A stretch of DNA of 64,000 bases from a virus (IMGVR_UViG_3300031853_000031:4579-68578); one strand, 5' to 3'; counted from the first letter of the stretch, positions 7,566-37,950 are shown. Notes: generated from the sequence alone by a model not told the origin. Numbers and translations: made by a program.

Positions 7566-7599
7566 TTTTTCGCAAAATCTACAGCGCTTATAATGAAAG

Positions 7600-9367: not shown

Positions 9368-9475
9368 ACTTATAAGGGCTCTGCCAGAAATGGCATCCCT
9401 TATAAACTTTTCGCAAAAATTACACCTCTTATAATAGAATCAAGAGGAATATTTTATTATAGGAGGTATGTTATC

Positions 9476-9691: not shown

Positions 9692-9771
9692 ACTCTGATC
9701 AAGTCCTGAGCAAGACTTTAAACTGCTCATTATTTTTTTTTCGCAATAATTACATTCCTTATAATGAAGGA

Positions 9772-10215: not shown

Positions 10216-10235
10216 CTTAGAAAGGAGGTGAAATC

Positions 10236-10505: not shown

Positions 10506-10547
10506 TGAAGGTGTTGTTAAGCATTATCCAAAGAAAGGAGTTATATC

Positions 10548-10997
10548 ATGGATAAGATTGCTGAGAATCACGAAGAACTTATTGAGAAGTTGCAGGCGCA
10601 TTTGCTTAAGCTGGATCCGGGTGATCCGCAGTATGGTAAGTTGCAAGCACGGTTGGATGCCATGATGAGGCAACGGAGTACAGACTTTAGAAACGAGCTT
10701 GACGCTATTGAGAACAACGAGCGTCTTGAGTTCGATCGCTGGAAAGCTGAGAAGGAAGCAGAAGAGAAAGCTGCTCAGAGAAAGGCTGACCAGGAGAAAA
10801 CCGAGAAGGAGTATGAGATCAACAAGGTCAAGAACAGGAATGATAAAGTCAGGAATGTTGTTGAATTCTTAAAGACTGGCTTCACCGTTTGCGTACCTGC
10901 CGCGTTAACCTGGGTGTTGGCAAAGAAGGAGATGGATCCTGTCGAACCGATCAATGTTAGACAAAGGATTTGGAATCTGATTCCAAAGATTAAGTAA
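10548..10997 (+). CDS. Charged coiled-coil protein with C-terminal hydrophobic segment
   Basis: Promoter 10483; RBS GAAAGGAG. Confidence 0.75.
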   Translation: MDKIAENHEELIEKLQAHLLKLDPGDPQYGKLQARLDAMMRQRSTDFRNELDAIENNERLEFDRWKAEKEAEEKAAQRKADQEKTEKEYEINKVKNRNDKVRNVVEFLKTGFTVCVPAALTWVLAKKEMDPVEPINVRQRIWNLIPKIK

Positions 10998-11125
10998 CTA
11001 TTGGTAATTGCATGAAAACACACTTTATAGCCTCTGTCAGAAATGACAGGGGTTATATTTTTTTCGCAAAAATGACAGCTGTTATAGTAGGAACCTATGG
11101 AATATTATTAATGGAGGTATTTAAT

Positions 11126-11371
11126 ATGAAGGTATACGTGTTAGTAAGCAAGTATAATGAGAACGACAAGCCGAGGTTTACAACTGATGTATTTCAGTCT
11201 TACGGAGAAGCTAATGACGCGGCGTTTGAGCGGATTAATAAAATAATCGGAGAGGATTATGTGTTTGATCGTGAAGCGTCGACAACAAGAGTGAAAATCG
11301 TAAGAAAAGTAGATTCAGGTTGGCTTGGTAGGGTTACTCACAGGTTTGTAATCACGGAAAACGAACTCTAA
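11126..11371 (+). CDS. Hypothetical early protein
   Basis: Promoter 11065; RBS GGAGG precedes ATG 11126, so the track start at 11012 would run through the terminator and promoter. Confidence 0.7.
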   Translation: MKVYVLVSKYNENDKPRFTTDVFQSYGEANDAAFERINKIIGEDYVFDREASTTRVKIVRKVDSGWLGRVTHRFVITENEL

Positions 11372-11467
11372 ACCTGTTCCTAGTCCTGAGCAAGACTTTA
11401 AACTGCTCATTATATTTTTTTCAATAATTACAGAGGCTATAATAGAAAAGCAAAGGAGGTAACAATT

Positions 11468-11680
11468 ATGAACCTAAAGTCGGAAGTAGCTTTGTACGAT
11501 TCCATGGTTGAAACTGAAGATTTGATTGAAAATATTCAAGGGAGGATTTATGGTTTTACAACAATCCCCCTTGAGGAAAGAGATGAGCTTTCAAGGAAAC
11601 TGTATGAGATTCGTATGAAGTTAGTAGATTATTCTAATGCATTAGGTGAGTCGTTAGTTATTATGGAAGCTTTTGATTAA
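11468..11680 (+). CDS. Acidic helical hypothetical protein
   Basis: Degenerate promoter 11420; RBS AAAGGAGG. Confidence 0.7.
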   Translation: MNLKSEVALYDSMVETEDLIENIQGRIYGFTTIPLEERDELSRKLYEIRMKLVDYSNALGESLVIMEAFD

Positions 11681-11729
11681 GGTAATAGTCCTGAGCAAGA
11701 CTTTAAACTGCTCATTATATTTTTCGCTT

Positions 11730-12035
11730 ATGACTTACAAAATCTACAAATGTGACCATTCTGTGTATTCTACATGTACATTATATTTTCATAAAGGTAA
11801 AGGACTAGCCATCATCCAGCAACGCTTTAACAAGAGGCTTAAGGTAACGTTCTGGTCGTCTGTTGACAAGGATTTAGCTGCAGAGATCGCTTATCATGAG
11901 AAGTTCTATGAATATTTCGTTGCTGAAGCAGGCTTCGCTAATGATGGATTATATCCTACCAAGACTATTAGACAGGTTATGTGGGCTCTTAAGATGAAAC
12001 CACTAAAGAAACATCCTTGGGAGACTCGTTGGTGA
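11730..12035 (+). CDS. Hypothetical protein
   Basis: First in-frame ATG after the hairpin repeat; no clear RBS or promoter. Confidence 0.5.
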   Translation: MTYKIYKCDHSVYSTCTLYFHKGKGLAIIQQRFNKRLKVTFWSSVDKDLAAEIAYHEKFYEYFVAEAGFANDGLYPTKTIRQVMWALKMKPLKKHPWETRW

Positions 12036-12100
12036 GTTCGCAAGAATAACAAAGGCTATAATGAAACCTGTTGGTGAGTTGAAGAAAGGAGTACATGTAA

Positions 12101-12172
12101 ATGGAAATGTTGGCGGTTTTCATGATCGCTTTGGGAATTTATATTCTCTATAAAGAGCATACAAAAACCTGA
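12101..12172 (+). CDS. 23-aa hydrophobic peptide MEMLAVFMIALGIYILYKEHTKT (not in ORF track)
   Basis: Own promoter 12039; RBS GAAAGGAG; downstream hairpin and T-run. Confidence 0.6.
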   Translation: MEMLAVFMIALGIYILYKEHTKT

Positions 12173-12286
12173 AGCAAATCATGAATAGGACTAAAGGAGG
12201 CTTTACAGTCTCCTTTCTTTTTCGCAAGAATAACACCTCCTATAATAGGTACAAGTTGATGTACATATTAAGAAAGGAGAACCATT

Positions 12287-12409
12287 ATGGTAAGTATTTT
12301 TGCGGGAGTTGTATTAGGTATCGCTTTAGTAGCGATGATACCGGCAGCAGAAGCCGTAAGTACAGAATTCCAGAAAGGAGAAATCCTTCTGAAGTACAAT
12401 CACGAGTAA
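12287..12409 (+). CDS. 40-aa hydrophobic peptide MVSIFAGVVLGIALVAMIPAAEAV... (not in ORF track)
   Basis: Own promoter 12223; RBS GAAAGGAG; GAAA terminator at 12414. Better supported than track ORF 12181-12447. Confidence 0.65.
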   Translation: MVSIFAGVVLGIALVAMIPAAEAVSTEFQKGEILLKYNHE

Positions 12410-12522
12410 ACGATAAGGAGCTTTGTAGAAATTACAAGGCTCCTTAGTTCTTCCGCAAAAATAACATCTCATATAATGAAGCGTATAGTGTGCTTCGTTA
12501 TATTTTAAAGGAGGATTTTATT

Positions 12523-12762
12523 ATGAAGAAATTAATATTCAAGCTGTCTATGTTAGCTGGAGCAAGCACCGCAGCTGGATGGGGTGGCTATTTTTGGTCT
12601 ATGAAAAACTTCAAGAACGGACATCTTAAAGAAGGCGTCCTGATTGGAACGATCACAGCCATTATAGCTACCGTCCTATCTGTTTGGGGCGGACAGAGAG
12701 CAATAGAGTGGACGAGTGAAGCATTAATAAACAACTCCAAAAAGGAGGAAGCAAGCGCTTAA
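12523..12762 (+). CDS. Small two-TM protein
   Basis: Promoter 12454; RBS AAAGGAGG precedes ATG 12523. Confidence 0.7.
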   Translation: MKKLIFKLSMLAGASTAAGWGGYFWSMKNFKNGHLKEGVLIGTITAIIATVLSVWGGQRAIEWTSEALINNSKKEEASA

Positions 12763-12845
12763 AACCAAGAAGAGGATTAGTAGAAATTACTAGTCCTCTT
12801 AGGTTTTTGCAAGACTTTGCGAGAAGCAGAAAGGAGTGTTGAAAA

Positions 12846-13058
12846 GTGGATCGCATTATTATTAAGTCAAAGCTCTTTAGATGGGTGTTAAGCAAGGTCA
12901 TCAAGAGAGCCATTAACAAGTCGTGTGGAGTAGACTCGGGGTTTACTCTGCATAGCTTTAACTTAGGGCATGACGATGGGGTAACCAAGATTACAGCCTG
13001 TTTCACCATTGAGGCGAGTGATGAAGACATTGTTAAGTTGTTTAAGGAGGAAGCTTAG
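12846..13058 (+). CDS. Hypothetical protein
   Basis: RBS GAAAGGAG; GTG start. Confidence 0.6.
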   Translation: MDRIIIKSKLFRWVLSKVIKRAINKSCGVDSGFTLHSFNLGHDDGVTKITACFTIEASDEDIVKLFKEEA

Positions 13059-13062
13059 AATA

Positions 13063-13458
13063 ATGGAAAGAACTAGAAGAATATTATATTTAATTATGAT
13101 GCTTGGAATCTTATCAGCTGAAGTATCATCTTGTAAGGCACACGCTTCCACAAAGACCATTGTCCCAATGGGCGAATTTCTGATCACCGCCTATTGTCCC
13201 TGCGAGGAGTGCTCAGAGGGTTACGGTCGTAAGACATCAACCGGTCATACAGCCCGAGCGGAGCATACCATAGCGGTTGACCCGTCAGTCATAAACTATG
13301 GTAGCAAAGTCAAAATCGGAAAACGCACATATGTAGCCGAAGACTGTGGCGGTAAAGTCAACGGTGACCATATTGATGTGTTCTTCGATTGTCATGAAGA
13401 GGTTGAAGGGTTTGGAAAGAAGTATAAGAATGTCTTTGTTGTGAAAGGAGAAAAGTGA
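13063..13458 (+). CDS. 3D-domain (MltA-like) cell-wall protein with N-terminal signal or anchor
   Basis: ITAYCPC, TSTG, TIAVDPSVI.YGSKV, AEDCGG and HIDVF (three Asp motifs); RBS AAGGAGG. Confidence 0.85.
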   Translation: MERTRRILYLIMMLGILSAEVSSCKAHASTKTIVPMGEFLITAYCPCEECSEGYGRKTSTGHTARAEHTIAVDPSVINYGSKVKIGKRTYVAEDCGGKVNGDHIDVFFDCHEEVEGFGKKYKNVFVVKGEK

Positions 13459-13889
13459 TGGGTGAACTGTATTATGAAAACGCAACTGGTTCGATGTTTC
13501 GTTCTAAGTCGGTTGAAGAGATTAGAAAGCGAATGGGAGAAATAGCTAAGAACTCAGAAGAGTCGTTACAGGCTGAGGGTTATTTGAGTGGTAAGACCGT
13601 CCAAGAATTATGTTTTGACGAGTTTTACAAACCATACTCCGGTAATGTTGTTACAGTCGTTGGTAGTTACATCAACGTATACTCCATAGGCGTTGATGTG
13701 TATGTCATTTTAAATGAACCAAACGATCAACCTAGGTCACACGAGGTTGGTGTTATAAGCGAGACGATAGGCAAATTGTTAAATGACAAAACGGAGACCA
13801 TAACTGAAAATAAAGTTTATGAGGCTCTTGATAAGCTGGAGTTAAAGTGTCTTAAGTTCGGCTTTAGTGTAAATATTATAATCCGATAA
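13455..13889 (+). CDS. Hypothetical protein
   Basis: RBS GAAAGGAG; overlaps the upstream stop. Confidence 0.7.
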   Translation: MMGELYYENATGSMFRSKSVEEIRKRMGEIAKNSEESLQAEGYLSGKTVQELCFDEFYKPYSGNVVTVVGSYINVYSIGVDVYVILNEPNDQPRSHEVGVISETIGKLLNDKTETITENKVYEALDKLELKCLKFGFSVNIIIR

Positions 13890-13939
13890 CGCAACAAAAA
13901 CATCTCCTATAATAGGTCGAATGAAAGGAGGACCAAGAT

Positions 13940-14308
13940 ATGAACAAAGAAAACGATACTATTGATATCCGCGAGTTCAAGCGTGAAGCTTTAAAGCGGA
14001 AGGTTAAGGAGAAGCTTGATTGGTGTAAAGACCGAGTCGAAGCCGGAGTTGAGTACATAGAGGAACACAAGGAACTTCTGATTCCAATTGGTGTTGCTCT
14101 TGCTGGAGGTATGAAGAGAGTTATCTCAAGCAGGGCTAAAGCCAAAGAGGAAGAGGAATTCGCGTGTAAGTATTACGACCCAAGGACTGGCAAGACCGAG
14201 TATGCCAGGAAGAAGCCTTCTGTTAAGCAGAGGCTTGAAATCGAACGAAGGTATCAGGAGGGAGAGTCGTATCTCGATATCCTTCACGATATGAGACTGT
14301 TAAAGTGA
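13940..14308 (+). CDS. Hypothetical protein
   Basis: Promoter 13890; RBS AAAGGAGG; terminator 14315. Confidence 0.75.
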   Translation: MNKENDTIDIREFKREALKRKVKEKLDWCKDRVEAGVEYIEEHKELLIPIGVALAGGMKRVISSRAKAKEEEEFACKYYDPRTGKTEYARKKPSVKQRLEIERRYQEGESYLDILHDMRLLK

Positions 14309-14380
14309 CGAGCGAGGAGCTTAGTAGAAATTACTAGGCTCCTTAGCTTTTTCTTAACGAAAGGAGATTATATTTAAGCA

Positions 14381-14653
14381 ATGTCAACTACTATAAACCT
14401 AGAAGATAGAACATTCTACGTTGGAAACTTCGTTCCGACAACAGAAGAGATTATCTGGCTCAGGAGTCAGTTTGAGGGTTATGACTTTGCTCTTGATCCA
14501 AGACCTCTTCAGAACAGGTTCACTATAAGTATGTGGGACGTAGAGCACCCGGAGGCTTTCTTAAAGTGTAATATCTACTACCCATTTGACCTATTCGACC
14601 TTAAGCGGATTATGCAGGCTATGGTCGAGGAAATTGACAGGAGGTGGCGCTGA
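14381..14653 (+). CDS. Hypothetical protein
   Basis: RBS GAAAGGAG. Confidence 0.6.
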   Translation: MSTTINLEDRTFYVGNFVPTTEEIIWLRSQFEGYDFALDPRPLQNRFTISMWDVEHPEAFLKCNIYYPFDLFDLKRIMQAMVEEIDRRWR

Positions 14654-14940
14654 TGTTTTGGACAGTATTACAGGAGTGCTTCCTTATTATATTCTGTATC
14701 TGTTGTGGTATTGCTTGCGAGGGTGATATCACATTTTCAGTGTATGCATTCTTTATGGGGCAGATCATCATTTGGGACAGATGTTATGAACGAAGAGAAA
14801 ATAAAGATACTACCGGTATTTGAAACTTATGTTGACTACGATGGTGACAGCTTTCTTACCGTGAAAAAGGGTCACGCGGACTATCGTAGCGGATGTAGAG
14901 CCCATTAGTGAGGAAATATTATATTTTATAAAGGAGGATA

Positions 14941-15789
14941 ATGAACATGACAACAACAGCAGTAATTTTACCAGAATGTGAACAGATTAAACAGAGGAGA
15001 CTTGAAATGGGGCTTTCTCAGGCAAAAGTCGAAGATAGTCTTGGATGGGGTAGAGGTAACCTTTCCAAATACGAGAAGGGTACTACCAAGATTCCGGCAG
15101 ACCGTAAAGAGGAACTCTGGGAGTTCTATGGTCTGGGTGCTAAGAAGGTCGCTGACTTCTTCGGGTTTAAGGAGACGGAGACACCAAGACCTGTTAAGGA
15201 CACTTCTCGTGGGTCTAGTACTCATAACGCTGAGGGTTATACAGATCCAACTATGGCAGAAGCTCTTAAGAAAGCTATGGCAGCTACCAAGTATACCGAT
15301 CCTCTGCCCGGTGAGGTGTGGACGAACTATAGGAACAACGGAGGCGTCCTTAGCAAGCTGATACTCTCTGTTGAAGGTAATACTGCTTACTGCCTGACAG
15401 TCTTCACTAAAGGTGCCAGCTATGACTTTAAGGTCAAGTGTAAGGCAGGTTTTACATATTATGTAGCCTTCGACAGGATGGAAGCTATCAAACTCAAAGA
15501 CCTTAAGGAAAGAAAGGCTATTATATCCTCTAAGTCTTTCGAAGAGGTTAAGCTTCACTTCGCCGGCTTGATGGGTATTGCTGTTGTAGAAAAGACCGTG
15601 GAGGTACCGGTTGAGGTTGAGAAGGTTGTAGAGAAGGAAGTCGTTAAAGAAGTTCCGGTAGAAGTAATCAAAGAGGTAGAGAGGGAGGCTCCAGTGATCG
15701 ACTCCTTTGAGTTTGAGATGTGCAAGAGGGAGCGTGACATCTACAAGGACATTGTAGACAGACTCTTGCCCTCTAAGACGCTTTTATGA
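14941..15789 (+). CDS. XRE-type HTH protein with C-terminal EVPVEVEKVVE repeats
   Basis: IKQRRLEMGLSQAKVEDSLGWGRGNLSKYEKG is an XRE HTH; E/K/V/P repeats near the C-terminus. Confidence 0.8.
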   Translation: MNMTTTAVILPECEQIKQRRLEMGLSQAKVEDSLGWGRGNLSKYEKGTTKIPADRKEELWEFYGLGAKKVADFFGFKETETPRPVKDTSRGSSTHNAEGYTDPTMAEALKKAMAATKYTDPLPGEVWTNYRNNGGVLSKLILSVEGNTAYCLTVFTKGASYDFKVKCKAGFTYYVAFDRMEAIKLKDLKERKAIISSKSFEEVKLHFAGLMGIAVVEKTVEVPVEVEKVVEKEVVKEVPVEVIKEVEREAPVIDSFEFEMCKRERDIYKDIVDRLLPSKTLL

Positions 15790-15971
15790 ATAGACAAGGT
15801 TTAAAGCCTTACTATCCTCGTTATTGGCCTGACTGGTTTAGTTACCACTATGCTTGTTGGGCCAATAATCATCGGGGATGGCAAAAGGCAAAGAAGAAAG
15901 AACGACGCATGGCTAAGAGGAGGCTTAAGCGGGAATTAAGAAAGGAGATAGAGAATGAACGTATATTTTGA
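15786..15971 (+). CDS. Small basic hypothetical protein
   Basis: Coupled ORF; aromatic N-terminus and K/R-rich C-terminus. Confidence 0.55.
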   Translation: MNRQGLKPYYPRYWPDWFSYHYACWANNHRGWQKAKKKERRMAKRRLKRELRKEIENERIF

Positions 15972-16605
15972 TACGGAATTTACAGGGCTTGTGCCTAACA
16001 CTACGCTGATCAGTATTGGTATGGTAGCGGAAACCGGTGAGAAGTTCTACGCCGAGTTTACCGATTATGATAAGGATTTGGTAACAGACTGGATTCAGAA
16101 AAACGTTGTTGATAAACTTGTGCTGAAACCAAACGAATCAATAATTACTAAAGACTGTTGGATGTTTTCCGGTTCGACAAATTATATTTGGAACAGGTTA
16201 CTTATTTGGTTCGAAAAAATCAGTGGAGCACAGTATGAAACCTTTCAGGATAACGCAAAAGCGTATATCCACCCTGAGCATCTAGGAGAACAAATTCAGC
16301 TAGTTTCAGACGTCTGCCATTACGACATGTACCTGCTTCAAAACCAGGTATTTGGCGGAGCTTTTAATATGCCGGTTAACATCAACCCGGTCTGCTATGA
16401 CATTTGTCAGGATATATGTGCTAGAGAAGTAGCTGGAGACGATTTAAAATGGTACCCCAACATGAACGGTATGGCAGATGCTTTCTATGTGTCAAGAGAG
16501 ATGTTCTGTAAGAAAGTAGCGGGCGATCTTCCTGAAGGTAAGAGGCACAACGCGCTTTATGACGCTAAAGTAATCAAAATGATATATGAAGGGATGAGAA
16601 AATAA
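15955..16605 (+). CDS. DEDDh 3'-5' exo(ribo)nuclease
   Basis: YFDTEFTGL (ExoI), SDVCHYD (ExoII), HNALYDAK (ExoIII). Confidence 0.85.
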   Translation: MNVYFDTEFTGLVPNTTLISIGMVAETGEKFYAEFTDYDKDLVTDWIQKNVVDKLVLKPNESIITKDCWMFSGSTNYIWNRLLIWFEKISGAQYETFQDNAKAYIHPEHLGEQIQLVSDVCHYDMYLLQNQVFGGAFNMPVNINPVCYDICQDICAREVAGDDLKWYPNMNGMADAFYVSREMFCKKVAGDLPEGKRHNALYDAKVIKMIYEGMRK

Positions 16606-16704
16606 TGGGTCTAGCGGCTTGTATAATATGGCTTCTACTCACTGCTTCAGGTTTTGTAAAAGTAAGCAACGATGTTTACTGGATGATCTGGGGCATGATT
16701 GTAA

Positions 16705-16989
16705 TTGCTATGTCGATTGATATACACGGACAGAGACTTACGAACGAGGAGGATGAAGATGAAAATGAGGACTACCGATAATTTATATTTAGTAACAAGA
16801 CATTATGATTTTCTCGTTATTGAGGACATCGATGCATATGGTATTACCAAAGACGGAGACGCCGTATATTTCGATATACTGAAGACTAATGGAGTTCGTT
16901 ATCGTCAGTTTTTTAACAAAGACCTAATACTATATATAGGTAACGACAAACAAGTCTTTGATCAGTTGAAAGGAGGGAACGATGAATGA
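16705..16989 (+). CDS. Hypothetical protein (true start probably at a downstream ATG)
   Basis: ORF track; GGAGG precedes an internal ATG near 16753. Confidence 0.5.
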   Translation: MLCRLIYTDRDLRTRRMKMKMRTTDNLYLVTRHYDFLVIEDIDAYGITKDGDAVYFDILKTNGVRYRQFFNKDLILYIGNDKQVFDQLKGGNDE

Positions 16990-17396
16990 GTGCTTTTATG
17001 TGTTCAAAAGAGACTCTATGGGATATGGCATTATATTTTGCTAAGTATTATCCGTGTGAGTGGGGTCACTTGTTAGAGAAGGAAGCTGGTGTAATTGAGA
17101 TCTATAAGGCTCTTGCTGAACTCAATGTCAAGTCTCTCATAGCAAGATACGGTGAGAGTGCTGTACCTGAGATGACTGGACCTTTGTCGGAATTATATTC
17201 TTATGAGGGCGATCTGGATGAGCAGGAAACAGATAATCTTTGCGTTGAGATGTCCTGTTATCTCTATCAGTCTTGTGAGGGTGACTGTGACGAGGATCCC
17301 ATATACGGATTAACACAGGAAATATTCAACGATACAGTGCGAGATGCGTTGTTTAGTAAACTCGACGACGATGTAATTACAATTTATTGGAGGTAG
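16986..17396 (+). CDS. Acidic hypothetical protein
   Basis: RBS AAAGGAGG; LNVKSLIARYGE...CYLYQSCE. Confidence 0.7.
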   Translation: MSAFMCSKETLWDMALYFAKYYPCEWGHLLEKEAGVIEIYKALAELNVKSLIARYGESAVPEMTGPLSELYSYEGDLDEQETDNLCVEMSCYLYQSCEGDCDEDPIYGLTQEIFNDTVRDALFSKLDDDVITIYWR

Positions 17397-17398
17397 AA

Positions 17399-17740
17399 AT
17401 GAAACCACTTGTTGAATATATAGGAAAGCCCGCACTTCTTGAGCAGACTGCTGAGGAGTGCTTAGAACTTGCATTCGCTTGTCTGAAACTTGCAAGATAC
17501 ATGCGTGGAGAAAACACAGTCTACGGACGGACGTATAGCGAAATGGTTGATTCCATTCATGAGGAGATTGCCGACGTGCGTATCACTATGGATGAGCTTG
17601 TTAATGCGGGCATGGTCCATTCGGACACCATATGGACTATGGAAGAGATGAAGAGAGAACGTATGGCAAGACGGTTTAAAGAATGTGATGGGGATGCTTG
17701 TGATATCGAATGGTTGAAGGAGGCTGAGACGGATGATTGA
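17399..17740 (+). CDS. MazG-like nucleotide pyrophosphohydrolase
   Basis: EQTAEECLEL...HEEIADV (ExxE...ExxD). Confidence 0.75.
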   Translation: MKPLVEYIGKPALLEQTAEECLELAFACLKLARYMRGENTVYGRTYSEMVDSIHEEIADVRITMDELVNAGMVHSDTIWTMEEMKRERMARRFKECDGDACDIEWLKEAETDD

Positions 17741-17984
17741 GGCTATAGCTGAACTCATGGATGAAAATCCGGGATTAGAAATTCGTTTAGAGCATGATCA
17801 GGATCTAAACGGAATTATATTCACAATCAGACTGGGGATAAATATCATAGAAAAAAGATATCTTATCAATGAAATTATAGCCGTGTGTGACGAAAATTTA
17901 GTGGATATCCATTTCAAGTATCTTCTTGAAGAAGCTGTAGAGGAGTTAAAGGAGGCAAACAAAAATGATAACAAAGAGATATAA
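17733..17984 (+). CDS. Acidic hypothetical protein
   Basis: Coupled ORF; RBS AAGGAGG. Confidence 0.6.
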   Translation: MIEAIAELMDENPGLEIRLEHDQDLNGIIFTIRLGINIIEKRYLINEIIAVCDENLVDIHFKYLLEEAVEELKEANKNDNKEI

Positions 17985-18285
17985 CATTATGCTGGCCGAC
18001 GGTCCTCTGGAGAATGATCCGGAAATAGATCAAGATATAGGTGAAGCAGTTAGAAAAACTGCAATGTCTCTTGAGTATCGGTGTAATATATTGCTCCGAC
18101 TCGAACAGGACTTTGGTCCAATATACACGATTTCAGTATCAAGCAGTGATCAACGGGTGTTTAAGAATATCGGATCAAGGTTAAGAGGTATCGCTTGCCA
18201 GTTATTGAAACTTAATAAAGATAAATATACCTCTATGAAATATTATAGTCGCTTATTAGTTGTTAAGGAGGCTAATACAAAATGA
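17965..18285 (+). CDS. Hypothetical protein
   Basis: RBS AAAGGAGG; coupled. Confidence 0.6.
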   Translation: MITKRYNIMLADGPLENDPEIDQDIGEAVRKTAMSLEYRCNILLRLEQDFGPIYTISVSSSDQRVFKNIGSRLRGIACQLLKLNKDKYTSMKYYSRLLVVKEANTK

Positions 18286-19055
18286 TTAAGCTAGAAAGCA
18301 CTAAAGTTGTTGGGTTTGAGCCGACTATAAGAGGTATGAGAAATCCAATGAATAGCTGGGAGAAAAGCGATACACTTTTTTGTGATTACGATGGGGATAG
18401 TTATACCATTAATGGAGACATGGCACCTATAGATAGTGGCTTTGAAGGCTGTGGTGGTGAGTATTATATTGTTGGTCCTAATGATCTTGACCTAATGAAG
18501 CGACTTGCTGCTGGCGGTCCTGTCCATGCTAAGTATAGAAGGATGATTGTGGTGTATGTAGATATTACCGCCCCATTATATTGGTGGAAGGAGTTTGACA
18601 CGTACAAAGTTGGTACAGTGGCTAATTCCTGCTCTACCATGCATAAGATTCATGCAAAAGAGTTCGAACTTGATGATTTTAGTCATGAACATATTATAGA
18701 CTTCTGGGGAGTAACGGTTAAAAGTCTAAATATGGGTAAATTTGATTTCGATGACCAGCCCATTATAGTACTTGGTGATGGAGATCATTTTGTTTCACCA
18801 TATGGCATTCTGAAGTTTACGATAAGTATGCTGAATAGATGTCGCGAATTATATTTAGAGACCAAAGACAAGAAGTACTGGTGGCAAATGATACAGTTGC
18901 TGCCGTCTTCTTACAACCAGAAGAGGACTGTAATGCTTAACTACGAAGTCTTGCATAACATCTACCACAGCAGAAAGGACCACAAACTTGATGAGTGGCA
19001 CTCCTTCTGTGACTGGATTAAGGAACTTCCATATGCGGATGAGGTGATATTATGA
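18282..19055 (+). CDS. ThyX-like flavin-dependent thymidylate synthase homologue
   Basis: VDITAPLYWWKEFDTYKVG...NSCSTMH, QLLPSSYNQKRTVMLNY...RKDHKLDEWH follow the ThyX topology with a divergent signature. Confidence 0.7.
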   Translation: MIKLESTKVVGFEPTIRGMRNPMNSWEKSDTLFCDYDGDSYTINGDMAPIDSGFEGCGGEYYIVGPNDLDLMKRLAAGGPVHAKYRRMIVVYVDITAPLYWWKEFDTYKVGTVANSCSTMHKIHAKEFELDDFSHEHIIDFWGVTVKSLNMGKFDFDDQPIIVLGDGDHFVSPYGILKFTISMLNRCRELYLETKDKKYWWQMIQLLPSSYNQKRTVMLNYEVLHNIYHSRKDHKLDEWHSFCDWIKELPYADEVIL

Positions 19056-19945
19056 CTATGTGGCCATTACCGGAAAATACATACTTAGGTTATAAAGATT
19101 TTTGTAAAGGTTGCAAACATTGTAAACCCGATATAGTATCTCAGGGCCTTGAGTATCATTTCTTGACTTGTGAGCACATGTCTGCTTGTGAGGCATTATA
19201 TTCGAGAATAACGGGAGGTGATAAAGATGCCACTGCTTTATCATAAACAGTGCATTATTTGTGGGGCTTATTTCAAACCAAGAAATAGAATCCAAGTCAC
19301 TTGTGGATCAAAGGTATGCCAAAGCGAATACAGTAAAAAAGTTAGAAGTCCTAAAAAGCATGGGTTAAAAGATCCGATGAAAGGACTTACCATGGATGCC
19401 ATTGCTGCAGAGAACCTTGGAATGACTTACGGGCAATACAAGGGAGCCCAATGGTGTAGGAACAAACAGGTAATGAGCAGCACCAGTCCGGTATATGAAT
19501 TTAGAGGCGTTGAATAGGAGGGATTATATTTTGGAAACAACAGCAATGTTAATCGAGTTTGAAAAGTGGTGCCCTAAGTGTAAGAATAATGTCCTGGCTG
19601 AGGAAGAGGATCCTTGTGATGAATGCTTAGAGCAGGGTTGGAACGAAGATTCCGTTAAGCCGATTAGGTTTGAGCCTAAGGAGTAAAATTATGACAAACT
19701 ATGAAAAGATGAAGCCGGCGTTAGATATGATCTTCGATGACGTAAATCTTGATGAAGCGGCAAAAGTTTTAAGTAACGGTCTTATCGCTTGTGAATTTTG
19801 CAATATTAGGAACTATTGCGATGAGAAAACGGATATTTATAACGACAGTAAACCGCCGTTAGGAAAGATTGTTACTTGCGAGGAAGTCTGCAAAATGTGG
19901 CTTAAAGAAAACGCAGAAAAAACAGTGGGTATAATGAGCGAATAG
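19052..19945 (+). CDS. Four small Cys-motif (Zn-finger-like) ORFs: 19052-19246, 19218-19517, 19495-19686, 19670-19945
   Basis: CKGCKHC..C, CIICG...CGSKVC, CPKC...CDEC and CEFC...C motifs; overlapping coupled ORFs. Confidence 0.55.
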
Positions 19946-19978
19946 TGCTCGGTTATTATATTTGAAAGGAGTTCGGAC

Positions 19979-20365
19979 ATGAACGAAGAAGTAAGAAACG
20001 AAGAGATCGTTGAAAAAGAAACTGTTAATAATGAAATAGTGGAAACTGAAACTTTTGACGAACCGGAAGTGATCCCGGCTGAAGAGGAATCTGACGGACT
20101 GTCTAAGGGAGCAGTTGCAGCGGTTGTCGTTGTCGGTGGACTCGCACTGTACGGTGCACGTAAATTAGTAAAAGACGTGATCGTACCAGGAGCGAAGAAA
20201 GCTGGCGGCGCGATTGTTAGCAAGATACCCTTTGACATCAAGAAGAAACCCAAGGTTCGGAAGAACAAGAAGGGGAATGTCGAAGTAGAAGTCGAAGCTG
20301 AGGAAGTGGACTTTGACGAGGTGTTCGAAGAAGACTTCGAGGATGAGGAGACTCCCAGCAAGTAA
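19979..20365 (+). CDS. Acidic-TM-basic-acidic membrane protein
   Basis: Promoter 19912; RBS GAAAGGAG; terminator 20389. Confidence 0.75.
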   Translation: MNEEVRNEEIVEKETVNNEIVETETFDEPEVIPAEEESDGLSKGAVAAVVVVGGLALYGARKLVKDVIVPGAKKAGGAIVSKIPFDIKKKPKVRKNKKGNVEVEVEAEEVDFDEVFEEDFEDEETPSK

Positions 20366-20452
20366 ACGAGTAAAAAACGCGAAACCGGAAGAGGATTAGT
20401 AGAAATTACTAGTCCTCTTAGGTTTTTCTCATAGTAATGAAAGGAGTATATC

Positions 20453-21223
20453 ATGAAAAGAGATTCAATTATATTTACCAATATGAAGTTGTTCGATGCT
20501 ATGGATTCGTTACAGGAGATAGGTGTTGTTGGAGCGCTAGCGAGTGTCGTTCTTATTACTATCGGCGGTTATGTTAAGGGACGGCATTGCAGAGCGCTTA
20601 ACGGTACCGGCAACGTGAATGGAATAGCTGACGTCGTCGAAAATCTTTATAAGTATTTTACAGACGATAATTCTGAGGTCATTGAAATCAAGAAAAGACA
20701 TGAAAATGAGGAGGACAACCATGAGAGGGATTAACTACAATTCTGCTAACTGGAATAACTTCAAAAGTAGAGCCAAGAGGGTAAAATCCGTTCAGGATCA
20801 GCAACAAATTAACCGTGAACTTATCGGTTATATTTCTATGCTGCAGGACCAGATAACAGAGATCAAGAAGAGTCTGGAGGATGATGGAAGATGAGTCCGA
20901 CTGGAACGTATTTGTGTTATGGGATTCAGCTAGCGGCTTTTTATCCTGAGCTTACATCTTTCAATTTAACCCCTTACAAGCTTAGTAAGGATCAGAAGTT
21001 CACAACGGTCTTTAAAAGGAGGACTCGAACAACCATAAGTCGGTGTGAATGGATGTTGAATTATATTTATACGAACAATGATGATATACCAGCGATAGTT
21101 AAGATGTTGATTGTTGGTGTTAATGCTGAGAATCGGTATCTTGATGTTAGAATATCTAATGAAGAGTTTGGTATGGAAGAACTTTGGAAGAAGTATGGAC
21201 CACGATTATATTCTAAGATTTGA
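20453..21223 (+). CDS. Three hypothetical ORFs (20453-20734, about 20721-20894, 20891-21223)
   Basis: RBSs and translational coupling. Confidence 0.55.
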
Positions 21224-21239
21224 AAGGAGATGACTAAAA

Positions 21240-22073
21240 ATGAACCTTGTAAAAATATTAAAGCCTTTAGAAAAAACCGCTTACCAGTTGCTTAGATCTG
21301 TTAAGGCTAACAGAACTACGCTCTACGCCATTGGAGCGACAGTTGGAGTGGTTGGGACGGCTGCGGCTAGTGCTAAGGCGGCTGTTAAGACCAAGGAGTA
21401 TCAGGAGGAGTATGCTGATGCGAGCTTTGCTGAGAAGGCGAAATTTATTGGTGGACTTTGGGTGATGCCGGTAGTAGTAGGAGGCGTTACTATCTTCTGT
21501 ATCTGGAGAGGACATAAGATCCACCTTGAGAAGGAAGCAAGTCTGGCTGCTATGAGTGCTTTCTGGAAGACCAAGTACGATGAACTTGATAAGAAAATCT
21601 CTGAGAAACTCTCTGAAGAAGAGTACAAAGAGGTTAAGGATGAGATATTCAAAGAGAACGTAGAGAAGGCAGCTAATGAACGGGGAGTGAATCTTGCAGC
21701 TCTGTCTAAAGGCCAGTTCTGGGTGTACGACGCTATAACAGGGCAGTTCATGAAGGTGACTGCAGACCAGATGACCTGGGCTACATATGCTCTTAATAAG
21801 CGTTTCATGGAAGGACAGGTCGTGCAGTATAACTGGTTCTTAGGACTGCTTGGAGGTAGACCGAGTGAACTTGCTAAAGACGTTGGTTGGGATCCTAACA
21901 ACGAGACGTTCTTTGAAATGTTGGACTACAATAATGGGTTCGGCATCGCACCGTGGCTTGATGTAGATGCTGACCATCACGCCGACATCAATATGGATCC
22001 TGTTAACTCTGAGGGCTTGCCTGTAGCGCAACTGTTCTACAAGTATGACCCCTTCTATCTATATGAAAAATGA
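21240..22073 (+). CDS. Paralogue family member 1 (DUF6353-like)
   Basis: AIGATVGVVGTAAASAKAA hydrophobic helix, second TM, C-terminal YNWFLGLLG...VGW; family name from recall. Confidence 0.6.
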   Translation: MNLVKILKPLEKTAYQLLRSVKANRTTLYAIGATVGVVGTAAASAKAAVKTKEYQEEYADASFAEKAKFIGGLWVMPVVVGGVTIFCIWRGHKIHLEKEASLAAMSAFWKTKYDELDKKISEKLSEEEYKEVKDEIFKENVEKAANERGVNLAALSKGQFWVYDAITGQFMKVTADQMTWATYALNKRFMEGQVVQYNWFLGLLGGRPSELAKDVGWDPNNETFFEMLDYNNGFGIAPWLDVDADHHADINMDPVNSEGLPVAQLFYKYDPFYLYEK

Positions 22074-22080
22074 GACGAAC

Positions 22081-22120
22081 GAACCCTTCGGGACCTGTAT
22101 GAGTTTCGAGGGGTTCTTTT
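22081..22120 (+). terminator. Intrinsic terminator
   Basis: GAACCCTTCGGGAC/GTTTCGAGGGGTTC hairpin followed by TTTT. Confidence 0.6.
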
Positions 22121-22580
22121 ATGGTGAGTGTTATGGGTAAAGATACACTATCATTAGGCGAAATTGTATTTCTAAAAGAATTTGACACTATTGGATGGGT
22201 AATAGATGAGGAAGATCCTGATGGCGATTATCGTGTAATGTATTACGATCACGGTCATTGTTGTTTTCAGTTATATTTCTTTGACATTACCGAAGTAGAA
22301 AGAACCGGTAGATTTGTTTACGATTTGCTTAAAGCAAGAGAGGAGTTAGTTGATTATGAGGATAACTAAGGATTTTGTGTTAGGGCTGTTGATAGGTATT
22401 GCTGGGATGAGCTGGGTTACTAATAAGAAGTTCGCATCTATCATTGAGGAAGACCGGAAAAAGCGTAAGACTACTGTAGAAGAGGCAACTGCTGAGATAC
22501 AGGACGTGGAGATCGCTGACATTATGGATATCTTTCACGAACAGGAGCAGGATGATGACGAGTACGACGACTTTATCTAA
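22121..22580 (+). CDS. Two hypothetical ORFs (22121-22369; 22350-22580 with TM and acidic tail)
   Basis: ORF track; coupling. Confidence 0.5.
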
Positions 22581-22855
22581 TCCGCAAGAAAAGCAGTTGG
22601 TATAATGGAAGGCTATAGGTCTTACTATTATATTTTGAAAGGAGTTTTATTATGAAGAAAGTATTGTTAGGAACTGGTTTAGGTTTCTTTGGCACCTGTT
22701 GTTTGTTATGCTGGAGGTGTCGTGATGATGCCTGGACCAAGGAGTTTACAGATTTTCTCTGGGAAGTGAACTCTGATTGTAAGAAAAAGATACTATAGTT
22801 GTACAAAGGGCTCTGTAATTATATTTACAGGGTCCTTTAGTTTTTTCGTTGGTTT

Positions 22856-33779: not shown

Positions 33780-33871
33780 CCTTTCGCAAAAAAAACAGAC
33801 GGTATAATAGAAGAGAAGGGAAGAAATATGCCATTTTTGATATTATTTTGGCATTTTCTTATATTTTTTCG

Positions 33872-34162
33872 ATGAAAGAGTCAAGATTTCAAATGAAACT
33901 TATAGAAGATCTGAACGCTCTATTTCCCGGTTGTATGGTAATGAAACTAGATGCTGGGTACCGTCAGGGCATACCAGATCTTCTTATTTTGTTTAAAGAC
34001 AAATGGGCTGTGTTGGAGTGTAAGGCTAGTGCGACAGCACATCACCAACCTAATCAAGACTATTATATTTCTAGGATGGATGATATGTCCTTCGCTAGAT
34101 TTATCTATCCTGAGAACAAGAAGGAGGTCTTAGATGAACTTCAACGAGCATTTCAAACTTAA
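33872..34162 (+). CDS. VRR-NUC nuclease
   Basis: ESRFQ..LI, GIPDLL, AVLECKA, PNQDYY; promoter 33785 upstream; start uncertain. Confidence 0.8.
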   Translation: MKESRFQMKLIEDLNALFPGCMVMKLDAGYRQGIPDLLILFKDKWAVLECKASATAHHQPNQDYYISRMDDMSFARFIYPENKKEVLDELQRAFQT

Positions 34163-34691
34163 AGGTTCTCATTCTTTTTTGGGTGCCTCTAAGTATCATT
34201 GGATACGATACGACGAGGATAAGTTCAGGAAAGCATGGAGTAACCATGAAGCAGCCTTACGAGGCACTGCTGATCACGAGTTTGCAGCCTTGTGTATTGC
34301 ACGTGGTCAGAAGTTACCTCGTAGTAAACAAACCCTTAACATGTACGTTAACGACGCAATAGGCTTTGGGCTTAAGCCCGAGGTCACGTTGCGGTATTCT
34401 GATAACGCCTTCGCGACAGCTGATGCTATTGATTTCAAAGAGCGTAAGAAGTTGTTGCAAATCTTTGATTTGAAGACTGGTGTCGTTCCGGCACATATGG
34501 AGCAGCTGCTTGTGTACGCTGCTTATTTTTGTTTGGAATACAAGATGCGTCCTTCTGAATTCAAAACAGAACTTCGTATCTATCAGAACAGTGACGTCGT
34601 AATTTATGAACCCGAAGTAGATGAGATTGTCCCCATAATGGACAAGATCATTCACTTTAACAAGATCATCGAAGAGAGGAAATACCAATGA
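34134..34691 (+). CDS. PD-(D/E)xK (Cas4/RecB-like) exonuclease
   Basis: RGTADH, ATADAI, IFDLKTG and EQLLVYA. Confidence 0.75.
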   Translation: MNFNEHFKLKGSHSFLGASKYHWIRYDEDKFRKAWSNHEAALRGTADHEFAALCIARGQKLPRSKQTLNMYVNDAIGFGLKPEVTLRYSDNAFATADAIDFKERKKLLQIFDLKTGVVPAHMEQLLVYAAYFCLEYKMRPSEFKTELRIYQNSDVVIYEPEVDEIVPIMDKIIHFNKIIEERKYQ

Positions 34692-37615
34692 GTATTATTA
34701 TATTCTCAGATGAGTTGATGCATTATGGTACTCCTCATTCGGGAGCAACCCCACACTCAGGACGCTATCCTTGGGGATCTGGTAAGAATCCACAAAGACA
34801 TAAAAGTATTCTTCAGAGAGCTGGCGAACTTAAAGAAGCTGGATTTACAGCTAGTGAGGTAAGAGCAGTTATGGGTACCACGGATAGCGAAATAGCTGCG
34901 GCTAAAGCTAGAGAGAACAAATGGGGTGATGCTGATGCTCTTCACGAACAGAACAAGGCAACGCTTGCTAAGATTAAGAAGCTTGAAGAAGAAGGTAAGA
35001 CATCGACACAGATTAAAGAAGAAACCGGGTTATCCAGTGGTGATGTTAGAGCTTTAAAGTCTGTCGTAAAGAAGCGTCAGCTTCAACTCGATGTTACAGA
35101 GGCTAGAAGACTTCGAGATGAGGAACACCTTGGGCCCACTGAAATTGCTCGACGTATGAACACTGGTGAGTCTACGATTCGTAACTATCTTAAAGACTCG
35201 TATAAAGAGAAAGTGGATCGTCAAGATGACATCATCAATGTTTTAAAGGCCGAGGTCGATAAAAAGAAATACATTGACGTTGGTAAAGGTGTTGAACTTC
35301 AGCTCAATATTACAAGGGATAAACTTGACAAAACTGTAAAAGAACTTAAACAGCAAGGGTATACTATACACCATTTATCCGTTCCACAAGCTACTAATCC
35401 TGTACACAAAACATCGATCCAGGTATTAACCAAAGATGATGTACCGTGGAAAGAAGTTAATGCTAATCGTGAAAAAGTAGCAACCATATTGGATGTGTAT
35501 TCGGATGGTGGTGAGATTAAGAAGAAAGCCCCACCCGTCAGTATTGACTCATCACGTATCATGATTCGATACAACGAAGATGGTGGTGTAGATAAGGACG
35601 GTGTGTTGGAGCTTAGGCCAAGCGCTAAAGACTTATCGATGGGTGGAAACCGGTATTCTCAAGTCCGAGTCGCAGTTGATGACACCCACTATCTTAAAGG
35701 CATGGCGATGTATGCTGATGAGAAGGACTTCCCACCAGGTATCGATATTATATTTAACACTAATAAGCATAGGGGCACACCTATGATCGGAGAAGATGCT
35801 GATCATGAAGTTCTTAAGCGATTGAAGACTGATAAAGTCACCGGTGATGTTGATGTCGATAATCCTTTCGGTGCTATTGTAAAACAAAAGACGTATGTTG
35901 GAGACGATGGAAAGGAACATCAGTCCCCCATCAACATCGTTAACGAAGATGAAGACTGGGAGAAGTGGTCAAAGAATCTTTCTGCACAGTTCTTATCTAA
36001 ACAATATTTAGCTACTGCTAAGAAACAATTAGACCTCACATATAGAGATAAAGTGAAAGAGTTTGAAGAGATTCAGGCTCTTACCAATCCCGTTCTCAAA
36101 GAAAAACTGATGCGGTCTTTTGCTGATGATTGCGATTCAGCAGCAGTTCATCTCAAGGCTAAGGCGTTTGATCGGCAAGCGAGTCATGTTATTCTTCCTA
36201 TGCCTTGGAATAAACCTAATGAGATCTATGCACCGAATTATGAACAGGGTGAGGAATTGGCTCTTGTACGATATCCACACGGTGGAACGTTCGAGATTGC
36301 TATCGTTACTGTTAACAATAACAATCCTAAAGCTAGAAGATTAATAGGTAACGCCGCACACGCTGTGGGTATTAATCCAGAAGTAGCACAACAGTTATCT
36401 GGTGCAGACTTTGATGGTGATACTGTAGTTTGTATTCCTACTAGAGGTAATAAGATTAAGGCAACGAAAGCTATTAAGGAGTTAATAGACTTCGAGCCTA
36501 AAGAAAAGTATCCTGCTTACGAAGGTATGCCTCGTGTCGGTCCTGATACTGGATTCCATAAACAGGCTGAGATGGGTCGAGTTACAAATCTTATCACGGA
36601 TATGACCATTAAGCACGCCACTACTGAAGAAATTATTAAAGCTACTAAACATTCCATGGTAGTAATAGACGCTGAAAAGCATAATCTCGATTGGAGGCGT
36701 AGCTATGAAGAGAATCAGATAGAGGCGTTGAAGCGTAAATATCAGAACACCGCTTCTAACGGACGTCCGGGTGGATCATCGACTATCATCTCTCGTGCAA
36801 AGTCCCCCTACATGGCTCCTGAAATAGACACCAACCGGCCCTATAAGATCAATCCTGAAACCGGGGAGAAGGAGTTCCAGTTTACAAACAAGACCCATAA
36901 CAAAAGAAATAAAGACGGGACCTATAGCGACAAAGAGATACCCAACACCTATAAATCCACCAAGATGTACTGGGCTAAGGACGCCTATGAACTAACGTCT
37001 GATGGGAAGGGTGGTACTAAGATGGAACAAGCCTATGCTGACTATGCTAATAGTCTTAAAGCATTAGGTGATAGGGCCAGACTGGAGTCGGTCCATATAG
37101 AGAGTATCCCCTATTCAAAAGAAGCCCGTCGTGTTTACAAAGCTGAAGTAGAATCGTTACAGGCTAAACTTAATGCTGCTATAGCCCACTCTCCTAAAGA
37201 ACGTAAGGCTCAACTTGTAGCGTCTAAAGTGATTGCTGCTAAAAAAGAGGCCAATCCAGACATGACTAAAGAAGAGGAGAAGAAGATGCGGTCTATAGCT
37301 ATAGCAGACGCACGTTCTCATCTTATAGGTACACAGAGTAAGCCTCGTATTACAGAGATTACAGATCGTGAATGGGAAGCAATTCAGTCTGGTGCTGTTA
37401 CTAAGTCCATGCTTAGAGAGATTATTGATAACTCTGATCAAGACATGATTAGACAAAGAGCAACACCAAGAACTAATAGTAAGACATTAACACCTGCACA
37501 GAGGGCTAGTATACACGCCATACTTACTAACCCCAACAACAAAGTAACACAAGCTGAATTAGCTAAACGTTACAATGTTTCAGTATCTACGATCAATAAG
37601 ATTGCTCGTGAATAA
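34688..37615 (+). CDS. Single-chain two-barrel RNA polymerase (YonO / RdRP-like) with HTHs and N-terminal HxG tag
   Basis: SGADFDGD at 36398-36421; LVRYP upstream; QVRV...YLKGM second-barrel motif; HTHs GPTEIARRMNTGESTIRNYL and TQAELAKRYNVSVSTINKI; starts SDELMHYG. Confidence 0.85.
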   Translation: MSIIIFSDELMHYGTPHSGATPHSGRYPWGSGKNPQRHKSILQRAGELKEAGFTASEVRAVMGTTDSEIAAAKARENKWGDADALHEQNKATLAKIKKLEEEGKTSTQIKEETGLSSGDVRALKSVVKKRQLQLDVTEARRLRDEEHLGPTEIARRMNTGESTIRNYLKDSYKEKVDRQDDIINVLKAEVDKKKYIDVGKGVELQLNITRDKLDKTVKELKQQGYTIHHLSVPQATNPVHKTSIQVLTKDDVPWKEVNANREKVATILDVYSDGGEIKKKAPPVSIDSSRIMIRYNEDGGVDKDGVLELRPSAKDLSMGGNRYSQVRVAVDDTHYLKGMAMYADEKDFPPGIDIIFNTNKHRGTPMIGEDADHEVLKRLKTDKVTGDVDVDNPFGAIVKQKTYVGDDGKEHQSPINIVNEDEDWEKWSKNLSAQFLSKQYLATAKKQLDLTYRDKVKEFEEIQALTNPVLKEKLMRSFADDCDSAAVHLKAKAFDRQASHVILPMPWNKPNEIYAPNYEQGEELALVRYPHGGTFEIAIVTVNNNNPKARRLIGNAAHAVGINPEVAQQLSGADFDGDTVVCIPTRGNKIKATKAIKELIDFEPKEKYPAYEGMPRVGPDTGFHKQAEMGRVTNLITDMTIKHATTEEIIKATKHSMVVIDAEKHNLDWRRSYEENQIEALKRKYQNTASNGRPGGSSTIISRAKSPYMAPEIDTNRPYKINPETGEKEFQFTNKTHNKRNKDGTYSDKEIPNTYKSTKMYWAKDAYELTSDGKGGTKMEQAYADYANSLKALGDRARLESVHIESIPYSKEARRVYKAEVESLQAKLNAAIAHSPKERKAQLVASKVIAAKKEANPDMTKEEEKKMRSIAIADARSHLIGTQSKPRITEITDREWEAIQSGAVTKSMLREIIDNSDQDMIRQRATPRTNSKTLTPAQRASIHAILTNPNNKVTQAELAKRYNVSVSTINKIARE

Positions 37616-37623: not shown

Positions 37624-37866
37624 ATGAAAGTAATGATTGCAATGTTATCAACTTCTGATAATCCTTTCAATCCTTTTACAAACTTTGAAGAATGGTACGA
37701 GTATGATGAGCGAAATAATTACCATTCCACTTCGTATTTAGGTCGAATTGCAAGACTTTCTCCGAATTTAACAAATAAAGAATACGAAGATGAAGTTGAA
37801 AGAGCGATTGATGAGATTATTAAGTACAATTTAACAGGAAATTACATTAAGGTGACACAGCCTTGA
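37624..37866 (+). CDS. Small acidic hypothetical protein next to the RNAP
   Basis: RBS GAAAGGA; MLSTSDNPFNPF... Confidence 0.65.
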   Translation: MKVMIAMLSTSDNPFNPFTNFEEWYEYDERNNYHSTSYLGRIARLSPNLTNKEYEDEVERAIDEIIKYNLTGNYIKVTQP

Positions 37867-37867
37867 T

Positions 37868-37950
37868 AGGGGGGAGGGGGTACCCCGAATCCCGCCCCCT
37901 CCCTGCATCGCGGCGTCCTTATATTTTTCTCCGGGGGTTAAAACCCCAAT
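37868..37950. other. Probable cos / genome-end region
   Basis: GC-rich island between the RNAP and terS/HNH; GGGAGGGGG/CCCCCTCCC inverted repeat, then GCATCG-CGGCGTCCT (37911-37919). Confidence 0.5.

Follow-up and report, generated by a model that had tools for sequence, protein, structure and literature searches.

A metagenomic phage gene for a predicted single-chain two-barrel RNA polymerase with fused helix-turn-helix modules and a candidate promoter class

A gene for a predicted single-chain two-barrel RNA polymerase (RNAP) was investigated in IMGVR_UViG_3300031853_000031:4579-68578, a 64,000-nt stretch of viral DNA (the window; all coordinates are positions in it, numbered from its first letter). 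The AlphaFold2 model shows the encoded protein as a single-chain member of the two-barrel RNAP superfamily; the nearest folds are those of the QDE-1/RDR class and of the small non-virion RNAP found in Thermus phages. Profile and BLASTP matches place the protein, over its full length, in the PHROG 4291 / Lactococcus phage 1706 ORF75 family, which had been recognised in silico before and to which the gene adds a further member. On balance, we consider it probable that the polymerase is a two-barrel single-chain enzyme that is DNA-dependent, sigma-independent, and serves the phage's own promoter class via fused helix-turn-helix (HTH) modules. The gene and the parts of its product are as follows:

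34688..37615, + strand: single-chain two-barrel RNA polymerase gene, 975 aa (open reading frame (ORF), PHROG 4291, AlphaFold2 model)
34688..34804, + strand: leader peptide DELMHYG...SGRYPWGSGKNP, residues 1-39, near-invariant and predicted disordered
34805..35479, + strand: predicted N-terminal DNA-binding region, residues about 40-264, with three HTH units and a winged helix
35540..35947, + strand: predicted beta-like barrel, a double-psi beta-barrel candidate (DPBB-B), residues about 285-420, with the invariant QVR...YLKGM; it lies inside the whole-model alignments to QDE-1, RDR2, and gp62
36170..36457, + strand: predicted beta-prime-like catalytic barrel (DPBB-A), residues about 495-590, bearing VRYPH and GADFDGD
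37484..37609, + strand: C-terminal sigma-region-4-like HTH, residues 933-974 (Pfam Sigma70_r4)

The polymerase ORF was preceded by a ribosome-binding site (RBS), AGAGGAAA, and its ATG overlapped the stop codon of the upstream exonuclease gene in an ATGA. In the translation, GADFDGD occupied residues 572-578 (bases 36401-36421), VRYPH residues 527-531 (R528, Y529, P530), and QVRV...YLKGM residues 325-339. A prior sequence-only reading of the window had named all three of these elements, and each was exact. In a family alignment of 60 metagenomic homologues (49-71% identity), D574, D576, G577, D578, R528, P530, H531, Q325, V326, R327, K337, G338, and M339 were invariant; DFDGD, RYPH, and QVR/YLKGM are therefore conserved signatures of the family and not chance occurrences. 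The PHROG 4291 profile ('RNA-dependent RNA polymerase') matched residues 79-973 along its positions 26-905 of 909 (E 0, 1035 bits), and Lactococcus phage 1706 orf75 aligned end to end by BLASTP (E 5e-159). A word-indexed search returned at least 7999 homologous clusters at E ≤1e-10. Full-length homologues with 35-43% identity were found by tblastn in 250 cultured or assembled phage records, whose hosts include Arthrobacter (95), Gordonia (55), Streptomyces (54), Lactococcus (13), and Faecalibacterium (2); near-identical DNA was sought among cultured phages and none was found.

The annotations of these homologues vary between 'HTH DNA-binding protein', 'RNA-dependent RNA polymerase', and 'putative RNA polymerase', and a RefSeq phage product name exists. 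The PHROG 4291 protein has been described as the signature of a supercluster comprising Lactococcus 1706, Faecalibacterium FP_oengus, and actinophages, and its DxDGD motif, a match to RNA-dependent RNA polymerase (RdRP) in HHpred (probability 95.7%), and HTHs at both ends were reported in the same study (Koert et al. 2021, bioRxiv 10.1101/842583). The novelty implied by the sequence-only reading was thus overstated, as PHROG 4291, the RefSeq product name, and that description all precede it. The present gene adds one more, slightly longer member to the family and leaves the existing family prediction unchanged.

The AlphaFold2 model built on the family alignment had a mean predicted local distance difference test score (pLDDT) of 84 and a predicted template modelling score (pTM) of 0.70. 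Foldseek ranked QDE-1 first (E 2.6e-7), followed by P74 gp62 (E 4.6e-5) and plant RDR2 (E 3.5e-4), with P32 gp64 and P23-45 gp96 also among the matches. VIA aligned 373 residues to QDE-1 (Z 16.6, model residues 281-801), and gave Z 15.1 for RDR2, Z 12.4 over 347 residues for P74 gp62, Z 9.0-9.4 for gp96, and Z of about 10-11 for the largest subunits of Pol I, Pol II, and bacterial RNAP. Residues 496-585 superposed on an idealised double-psi beta-barrel with Z 10.9 and a root-mean-square deviation of 1.7 Å over 77 residues (VIA); in the model, the DFDGD domain is a clean double-psi beta-barrel. Modelled alone (pLDDT 93.8), DPBB-B found its best matches among double-psi beta-barrel folds and beta-like RNAP subunits, at only Z 2.4-4.0, and its modelled fold is consistent with a second double-psi barrel rather than proof of one. 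Connector helices occupied residues 421-490 of the model, and helical and beta elements continued after the catalytic barrel to about residue 925. Structure prediction and search, proposed with the sequence-only reading as a check on a QDE-1-type two-barrel fold, thus returned such a fold with a double-psi barrel in it, where a model with no barrels would have spoken against the proposal.

The Pfam families matched by the polymerase were of helix-turn-helix kinds only, and they lay near both ends, as had been noted from the sequence. At the C-terminus, Sigma70_r4 matched residues 933-974 (E 2.4e-7, 30.6 bits against a cut-off of 24.1) and HTH_11 was also detected (E 1.8e-6); this HTH is kept in the family consensus. 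Near the N-terminus, HTH_29, HTH_31, and Sigma70_r4_2 matched residues about 138-172, within a set of three HTH units that spans residues about 40-170 according to the model helices, and a winged-helix domain followed at 176-264 (winged-helix matches at Z 7.3 by VIA on residues 170-264). Most homologues in the alignment lack the first of these HTH units (residues about 40-78), which is an insertion. The leader carries a duplicated TPHSG; this duplication and the extra HTH unit (window 34724-34921) account for the greater length of the present polymerase. The leader, with the consensus (D/E)xLxHYG(T/I)xRxSGRYPWGSG over its first ~35 residues, was near-invariant in the 60 homologues and present in the five cultured-phage orthologues from two phyla. 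It was modelled with a pLDDT of 30-39, which predicts disorder.

A promoter-like motif accompanied the polymerase. Its copies in the window are:

33785..33808, + strand: last copy of the promoter-like motif CGCAA-N5-ACA-N5-TATAAT, heading the endonuclease-exonuclease-polymerase-small ORF operon
6717..22606, + strand: the other 16 promoter-like copies (14 at 6717-13913, then 19912 and 22583), candidate targets of the polymerase

The pattern CGCAR-N5-RCA-N5-TATART, for which 0.1 copies would be expected, was found 17 times in the window; every copy was on the + strand, and none lay in the structural region at 38-64 kb. The copies usually carried a T-run upstream and GAAAG-like purines downstream, and the motif came without a -35 hexamer. 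The sequence-only reading had placed the polymerase gene behind the last CGCAA motif, and the copy at 33785-33808 indeed precedes its operon. In other polymerase-bearing phages, the same pattern was counted with one mismatch allowed and with the reversed pattern as control:

Lactococcus phage 1706: forward 9, reverse 0, reversed-pattern control 1
Rhodococcus phage ReqiPoco6: forward 13, reverse 0, reversed-pattern control 0
Streptomyces phage LibertyBell: forward 6, reverse 0, reversed-pattern control 0
Arthrobacter phage Hankly: forward 9, reverse 1, reversed-pattern control 2

Among five polymerase-bearing phages from two phyla, four share the motif with identical spacing and nearly always on the coding strand, and the purines directly after the last box were conserved across phyla. 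The fifth phage, FP_oengus, has a variant: no copy was found at one-mismatch stringency, and at least 11 copies of CGCGAAAAAT-RCA-N6-TTTATGG were found (2280-9356), in which the upstream half is kept and TTTATGG makes a poor sigma-A -10 box. In sk1, TP901-1, ReqiPine5, ReqiDocB7, and phiC31, five phages that infect the same host genera and lack the polymerase, there were zero copies. As the motif is present with the polymerase and absent from polymerase-less phages of the same genera, it tracks the polymerase and not the host. A copy stood directly ahead of the polymerase operon in the window (33785), in ReqiPoco6 (73859), and in Hankly (54492). A scan for sigma-70-type sites in 27.0-38.4 kb gave 25 against 27 expected from shuffles, which is no enrichment, and none of the sites ahead of the polymerase in that interval stood out as a canonical promoter. 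An expression look-up listed no RNA holder for the early region. Of the shared genes examined, only the polymerase gene encoded an HTH-bearing protein. The likeliest interpretation, to which we give roughly even chances, is that the motif is the enzyme's own promoter. Promoters are undiscussed in Koert et al. 2021 (bioRxiv 10.1101/842583), and Klyczek 2017 and Cornuault 2018 mention neither the polymerase nor the promoter motif.

Further conserved elements were observed near the promoter copies of relatives. In FP_oengus, a hairpin, GGAGCTTACGAGAAATCGTAGGCTC, with a T-run occurred in 6-7 conserved copies and, together with the variant promoter, frames small early cassettes. In ReqiPoco6 (40.9-50.3 kb) and LibertyBell (24.5-30.8 kb), the promoter was followed by a conserved leader, GAGACCCCTA(C/T), before the RBS. 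As this leader is common to two actinophages of different host genera, the conserved unit reaches beyond the promoter into transcribed sequence.

In the mechanism that we favor, the fused HTH modules would recognise a promoter class of the form CRCAW-N5-ACA-N5-TATART with a purine-rich start. Promoters of this class stand ahead of the early and middle cassettes and also ahead of the operon of the polymerase, which would create a private, self-reinforcing transcription programme. The first enzyme molecules would come from weak host transcription of TATAAT-bearing sites or from virion-carried enzyme. We infer the DNA dependence and the promoter recognition by the fused HTHs, and an 80-aa protein encoded directly downstream of the polymerase may have a subunit role.

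Several observations weigh against this mechanism or against parts of it. A limited literature search found no biochemical or transcript-start evidence for any family member. Searches of PDB sequences with phmmer and with the 60-sequence profile returned HTH proteins only and no solved RNAP, and the polymerase had no match at E ≤1 to Pfam PF05183, the eukaryotic-type RdRP family. Homology to QDE-1 consequently rests on fold and motifs, since sequence profiles reach neither PF05183 nor solved RNAPs. One homologue has a precomputed PF05183 match, and the relation to that family is one of remote homology, not membership. The second barrel, searched alone, scored just Z ≤4.0. Because the lineage shares the gene block by descent, the finding that motif and polymerase occur together is in part confounded. 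On prophage induction, moreover, the programme must start with no virion protein present. Finally, TATAAT is the universal sigma-A -10 box and CGCAA sits at about the position of the T4 MotA box, so that host RNAP with a phage activator fits most copies.

This last point leads to an alternative that we regard as unlikely, in which host sigma-A RNAP reads the promoters, the protein or its HTHs act as an activator or a substitute for sigma region 4, and the polymerase core serves RNA priming, R-loop formation in replication or recombination, or RNA-templated synthesis. Most copies do have a perfect TATAAT, with the upstream box 13 bp away as in T4 middle promoters. The gene also lies in a replication and recombination module, after genes for a DNA polymerase-primase, an annealing protein, a helicase, a VRR-Nuc protein, and an exonuclease, and QDE-1 is reported to accept single-stranded DNA (ssDNA) and RNA templates. 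In the announcement of Gordonia phage Vardy, Henson et al. took copies of the motif as possible sigma-70 -10 sites and drew no link to the polymerase. The FP_oengus variant, however, has TTTATGG in place of TATAAT while keeping the upstream half, the purine-rich bases directly after the box are conserved across phyla, and other phages of the same hosts lack the motif, all of which argue against recognition by host sigma-A. A priming role is disfavored by the primase-like part that the DNA polymerase already has, and a protein whose catalytic triad is invariant and which carries four or five DNA-binding modules is better fitted by a promoter-specific transcriptase.

What such a transcriptase would transcribe is a separate point. 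A YonO-like late enzyme, made in mid-phase and transcribing the structural operon from 38.1 kb, perhaps through the hairpins at 37868-37947, appears improbable. It draws on the precedent of YonO, which has been characterised as a single-chain two-barrel RNAP from a temperate phage of Firmicutes, and on gene order, since the polymerase gene is the last but one ahead of the packaging and head genes and is oriented as they are. Against it, the structural region (38-64 kb) has no copy of the conserved motif, other repeated late promoters were not identified, and the motif distribution in all six phages points to early and middle genes. We give very little credence to a catalytically inert DNA-binding protein that merely retains a polymerase scaffold. 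Most database records do name only a helix-turn-helix DNA-binding protein, but the Asp triad, RxPH, and the second-barrel lysine motif are invariant in 60 diverse homologues and in the five cultured-phage orthologues.

A refinement of the favored mechanism concerns delivery. Injected phage RNAPs are known from N4, crAss-like phages, and P23-45. The polymerase may possibly be targeted into the capsid by its N-terminal leader, in the way that leader-bearing head-module proteins would be, and injected with the DNA to start early transcription without host RNAP, although we hold this only tentatively. Head-module ORFs of relatives begin with (D/E)x(F/I)LAHYGVKGMKWGV(R/K), which is related to the polymerase leader, and the window contains three such ORFs between the HNH and TerL genes:

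38897-39724, 40093-41064, and 41312-43012: three leader-bearing head-module ORFs, DFLVHHGRxGQxWGVKNGPPYP, with weak matches to Pfam DUF7211

In the ORF at 40093-41064, Pfam matched a toxin domain of the papain-fold glutamine-deamidase kind (PF15644, E 7.3e-6); an overlapping 84-aa ORF came next. ReqiPoco6 carried six leader-bearing ORFs between TerL and portal.

Support for delivery in the virion comes from several sides. The full-length orthologue orf75 is labelled 'structural protein' in the authors' GenBank record of 1706, as is the leader-bearing orf7. The polymerase leader is conserved above most of the core and predicted disordered. Of 120 polymerase homologues, 69 were matched by a hidden Markov model (HMM) of the head-module leader, in every case at residues 1-16, compared with 7 matches among 985 decoy ORFs, and the two leaders of ReqiPoco6 are alike (DDYLAHYGI and DDFLAHYGV). 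Leader-bearing ORFs cluster beside TerL, upstream of portal, one of them with the toxin-like deamidase domain. The only visible promoter of the polymerase gene is of the private class, which poses a bootstrap problem; virion injection would solve it, because the gene sits behind its own promoter class.

Other results point the opposite way. Each of the leader HMM matches was weak (E 0.05-10), the polymerase-leader HMM run against all six-frame ORFs of the window found the polymerase itself only, Pfam DUF7211 did not match the polymerase leader, and a 40-aa cargo-leader query missed the polymerase in five phages. As these reverse searches were negative, the tie between the leaders rests on a one-way HMM and on by-eye identity within single phages. 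The virion evidence for 1706 orf75 is its GenBank label; the ReqiPoco6 label was assigned by similarity only; and orf62 and orf71, small replication-module proteins, are also 'structural' in the 1706 record, which makes carry-over possible. An injected enzyme, furthermore, cannot serve prophage induction. The fuller scenario, in which the leader loads the polymerase into the capsid alongside leader-tagged effector-like proteins, and the injected enzyme makes an HTH-guided early start at CRCAW-N5-ACA-N5-TATART without host RNAP, is more speculative and in our view rather doubtful. If true, it would represent a compact, sigma-free, virion-borne transcription system common to thousands of siphophages of Firmicutes and Actinobacteria. 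The labels of 1706 orf62 and orf71 may themselves reflect either the packaging of several non-canonical proteins or contaminants in the virion preparation.

The polymerase was compared with known systems. Its closest relatives are those of PHROG 4291, with 34-43% identity to 1706 orf75, ReqiPoco6 gp106, FP_oengus AUV56548, and actinophage orthologues, and with DFDGD, RYPH, the leader, the terminal HTHs, and the VRR-Nuc - exonuclease - polymerase - small ORF synteny in common. The present copy differs from them in its length (975 aa against about 890-920), its extra N-terminal HTH unit, and its duplicated TPHSG, and its setting is an integrase-bearing phage from a metagenome. QDE-1 and RDR2 were the best structural matches (Z 16.6 and 15.1), covering both barrels and the helices after them, and they share the DxDGD loop. 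Identity to QDE-1 was only about 11-15%, and QDE-1 has neither fused HTHs nor a leader and works in RNA silencing on ssDNA and RNA templates.

Among phage enzymes, P23-45 gp64 and P74-26 gp62 (non-virion) and gp96 (virion) of Thermus phages are single-chain two-barrel RNAPs that carry out pre-early and early transcription from phage-specific promoters (Chaban et al. 2024, PMC10770324). The present model resembles them in this architecture (gp62 Z 12.4, gp96 Z 9.0-9.4), although no similarity in sequence could be detected; gp62, at about 590 aa, comes without fused HTHs, and gp96 is fused to a tape-measure protein, whereas any virion delivery of the present polymerase would rely on its short N-terminal leader. 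YonO, encoded by the temperate Firmicute phage SPbeta, is described as a DNA-dependent RNAP of about 100 kDa with two barrels in a single chain (Forrest et al. 2017, PMC5467207). Its likeness to the present protein is by that description, as a one-protein two-barrel RNAP of a temperate phage; no YonO entry was among the matches of the PDB structure searches, and YonO is not known to carry the leader or the terminal HTHs of the present family. The motif distribution of the present phage, moreover, marks early and middle genes, not late ones. The crAss-like phi14:2 gp66 is a QDE-1-like two-barrel enzyme and was a weak match in the DPBB-B search (Z 3.2). The N4 and crAss virion RNAPs may offer a likeness in packaging and injection; both exceed 2000 aa, and the N4 enzyme is T7-like, not two-barrel.

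Single-chain two-barrel RNAPs are the closest relatives of eukaryotic RNA interference polymerases in the prokaryotic world. Few have been studied, namely YonO, crAss gp66, and the Thermus phage RNAPs, and the present family is far commoner, occurring in gut, dairy, and soil phages. The candidate promoter and the built-in DNA-binding modules may form a new compact, orthogonal polymerase-promoter pair, which could in turn reveal how early transcription is run in many temperate phages.

The window makes up the greater part of an IMG/VR virus record that is complete at 68.6 kb and has terminal repeats, and the window carries a tyrosine integrase gene at 5490-6680 on the minus strand. The integrase and the complete virus record with terminal repeats support the description of a temperate phage given in the sequence-only reading. 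The genes toward and beyond the polymerase run in the order DNA polymerase-primase, annealing protein, helicase, the motif copy at 33785, VRR-Nuc, Cas4-like exonuclease, polymerase, and 80-aa ORF, followed by a G+C-rich inverted repeat and then HNH, connector, TerL, portal, and protease-capsid genes. The remaining elements of the polymerase operon are:

33848..34162, + strand: VRR-Nuc-like endonuclease, first gene of the operon (phrog_93, E 2.4e-15; VRR-Nuc annotation in syntenic actinophage loci)
34134..34691, + strand: Cas4/RecB-like exonuclease (phrog_3953, E 2.5e-70); its stop overlaps the polymerase start
37624..37866, + strand: conserved small ORF, 80 aa (phrog_4303, E 5.9e-32); its start may be M4 or M7
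37868..37947, + strand: G+C-rich inverted repeat and short hairpin with an A/T-rich tail, a candidate terminator or cos region closing the operon

The 80-aa ORF at 37624, which had been suggested from the sequence as a possible accessory subunit, exists and is conserved, with 43% identity to 1706 orf76. It was found in 247 of the 250 polymerase-bearing phage records, with a host distribution equal to that of the polymerase; it is always next after the polymerase, and in linear relatives it is the last gene ahead of the cos end. Pfam gave no match for it, and the ESM Atlas gave no usable feature match, only viral clusters at TM <0.5. We regard the 80-aa protein as a candidate partner of the polymerase on the strength of this gene conservation, which fits the subunit idea without proving it because the whole gene block is inherited together in the lineage. 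The order endonuclease, exonuclease, polymerase, small ORF, and cos end is common to 1706, ReqiPoco6, FP_oengus, LibertyBell, and Hankly.

Directly after the small ORF, the window shows the inverted repeat GGGGGGAGGGGG ... CCCCCTCCC and the hairpin GGGGTTAAAACCCC (37934-37947). The linear relatives have a cos end at the matching place, and in ReqiPoco6 it follows the orthologous small ORF.

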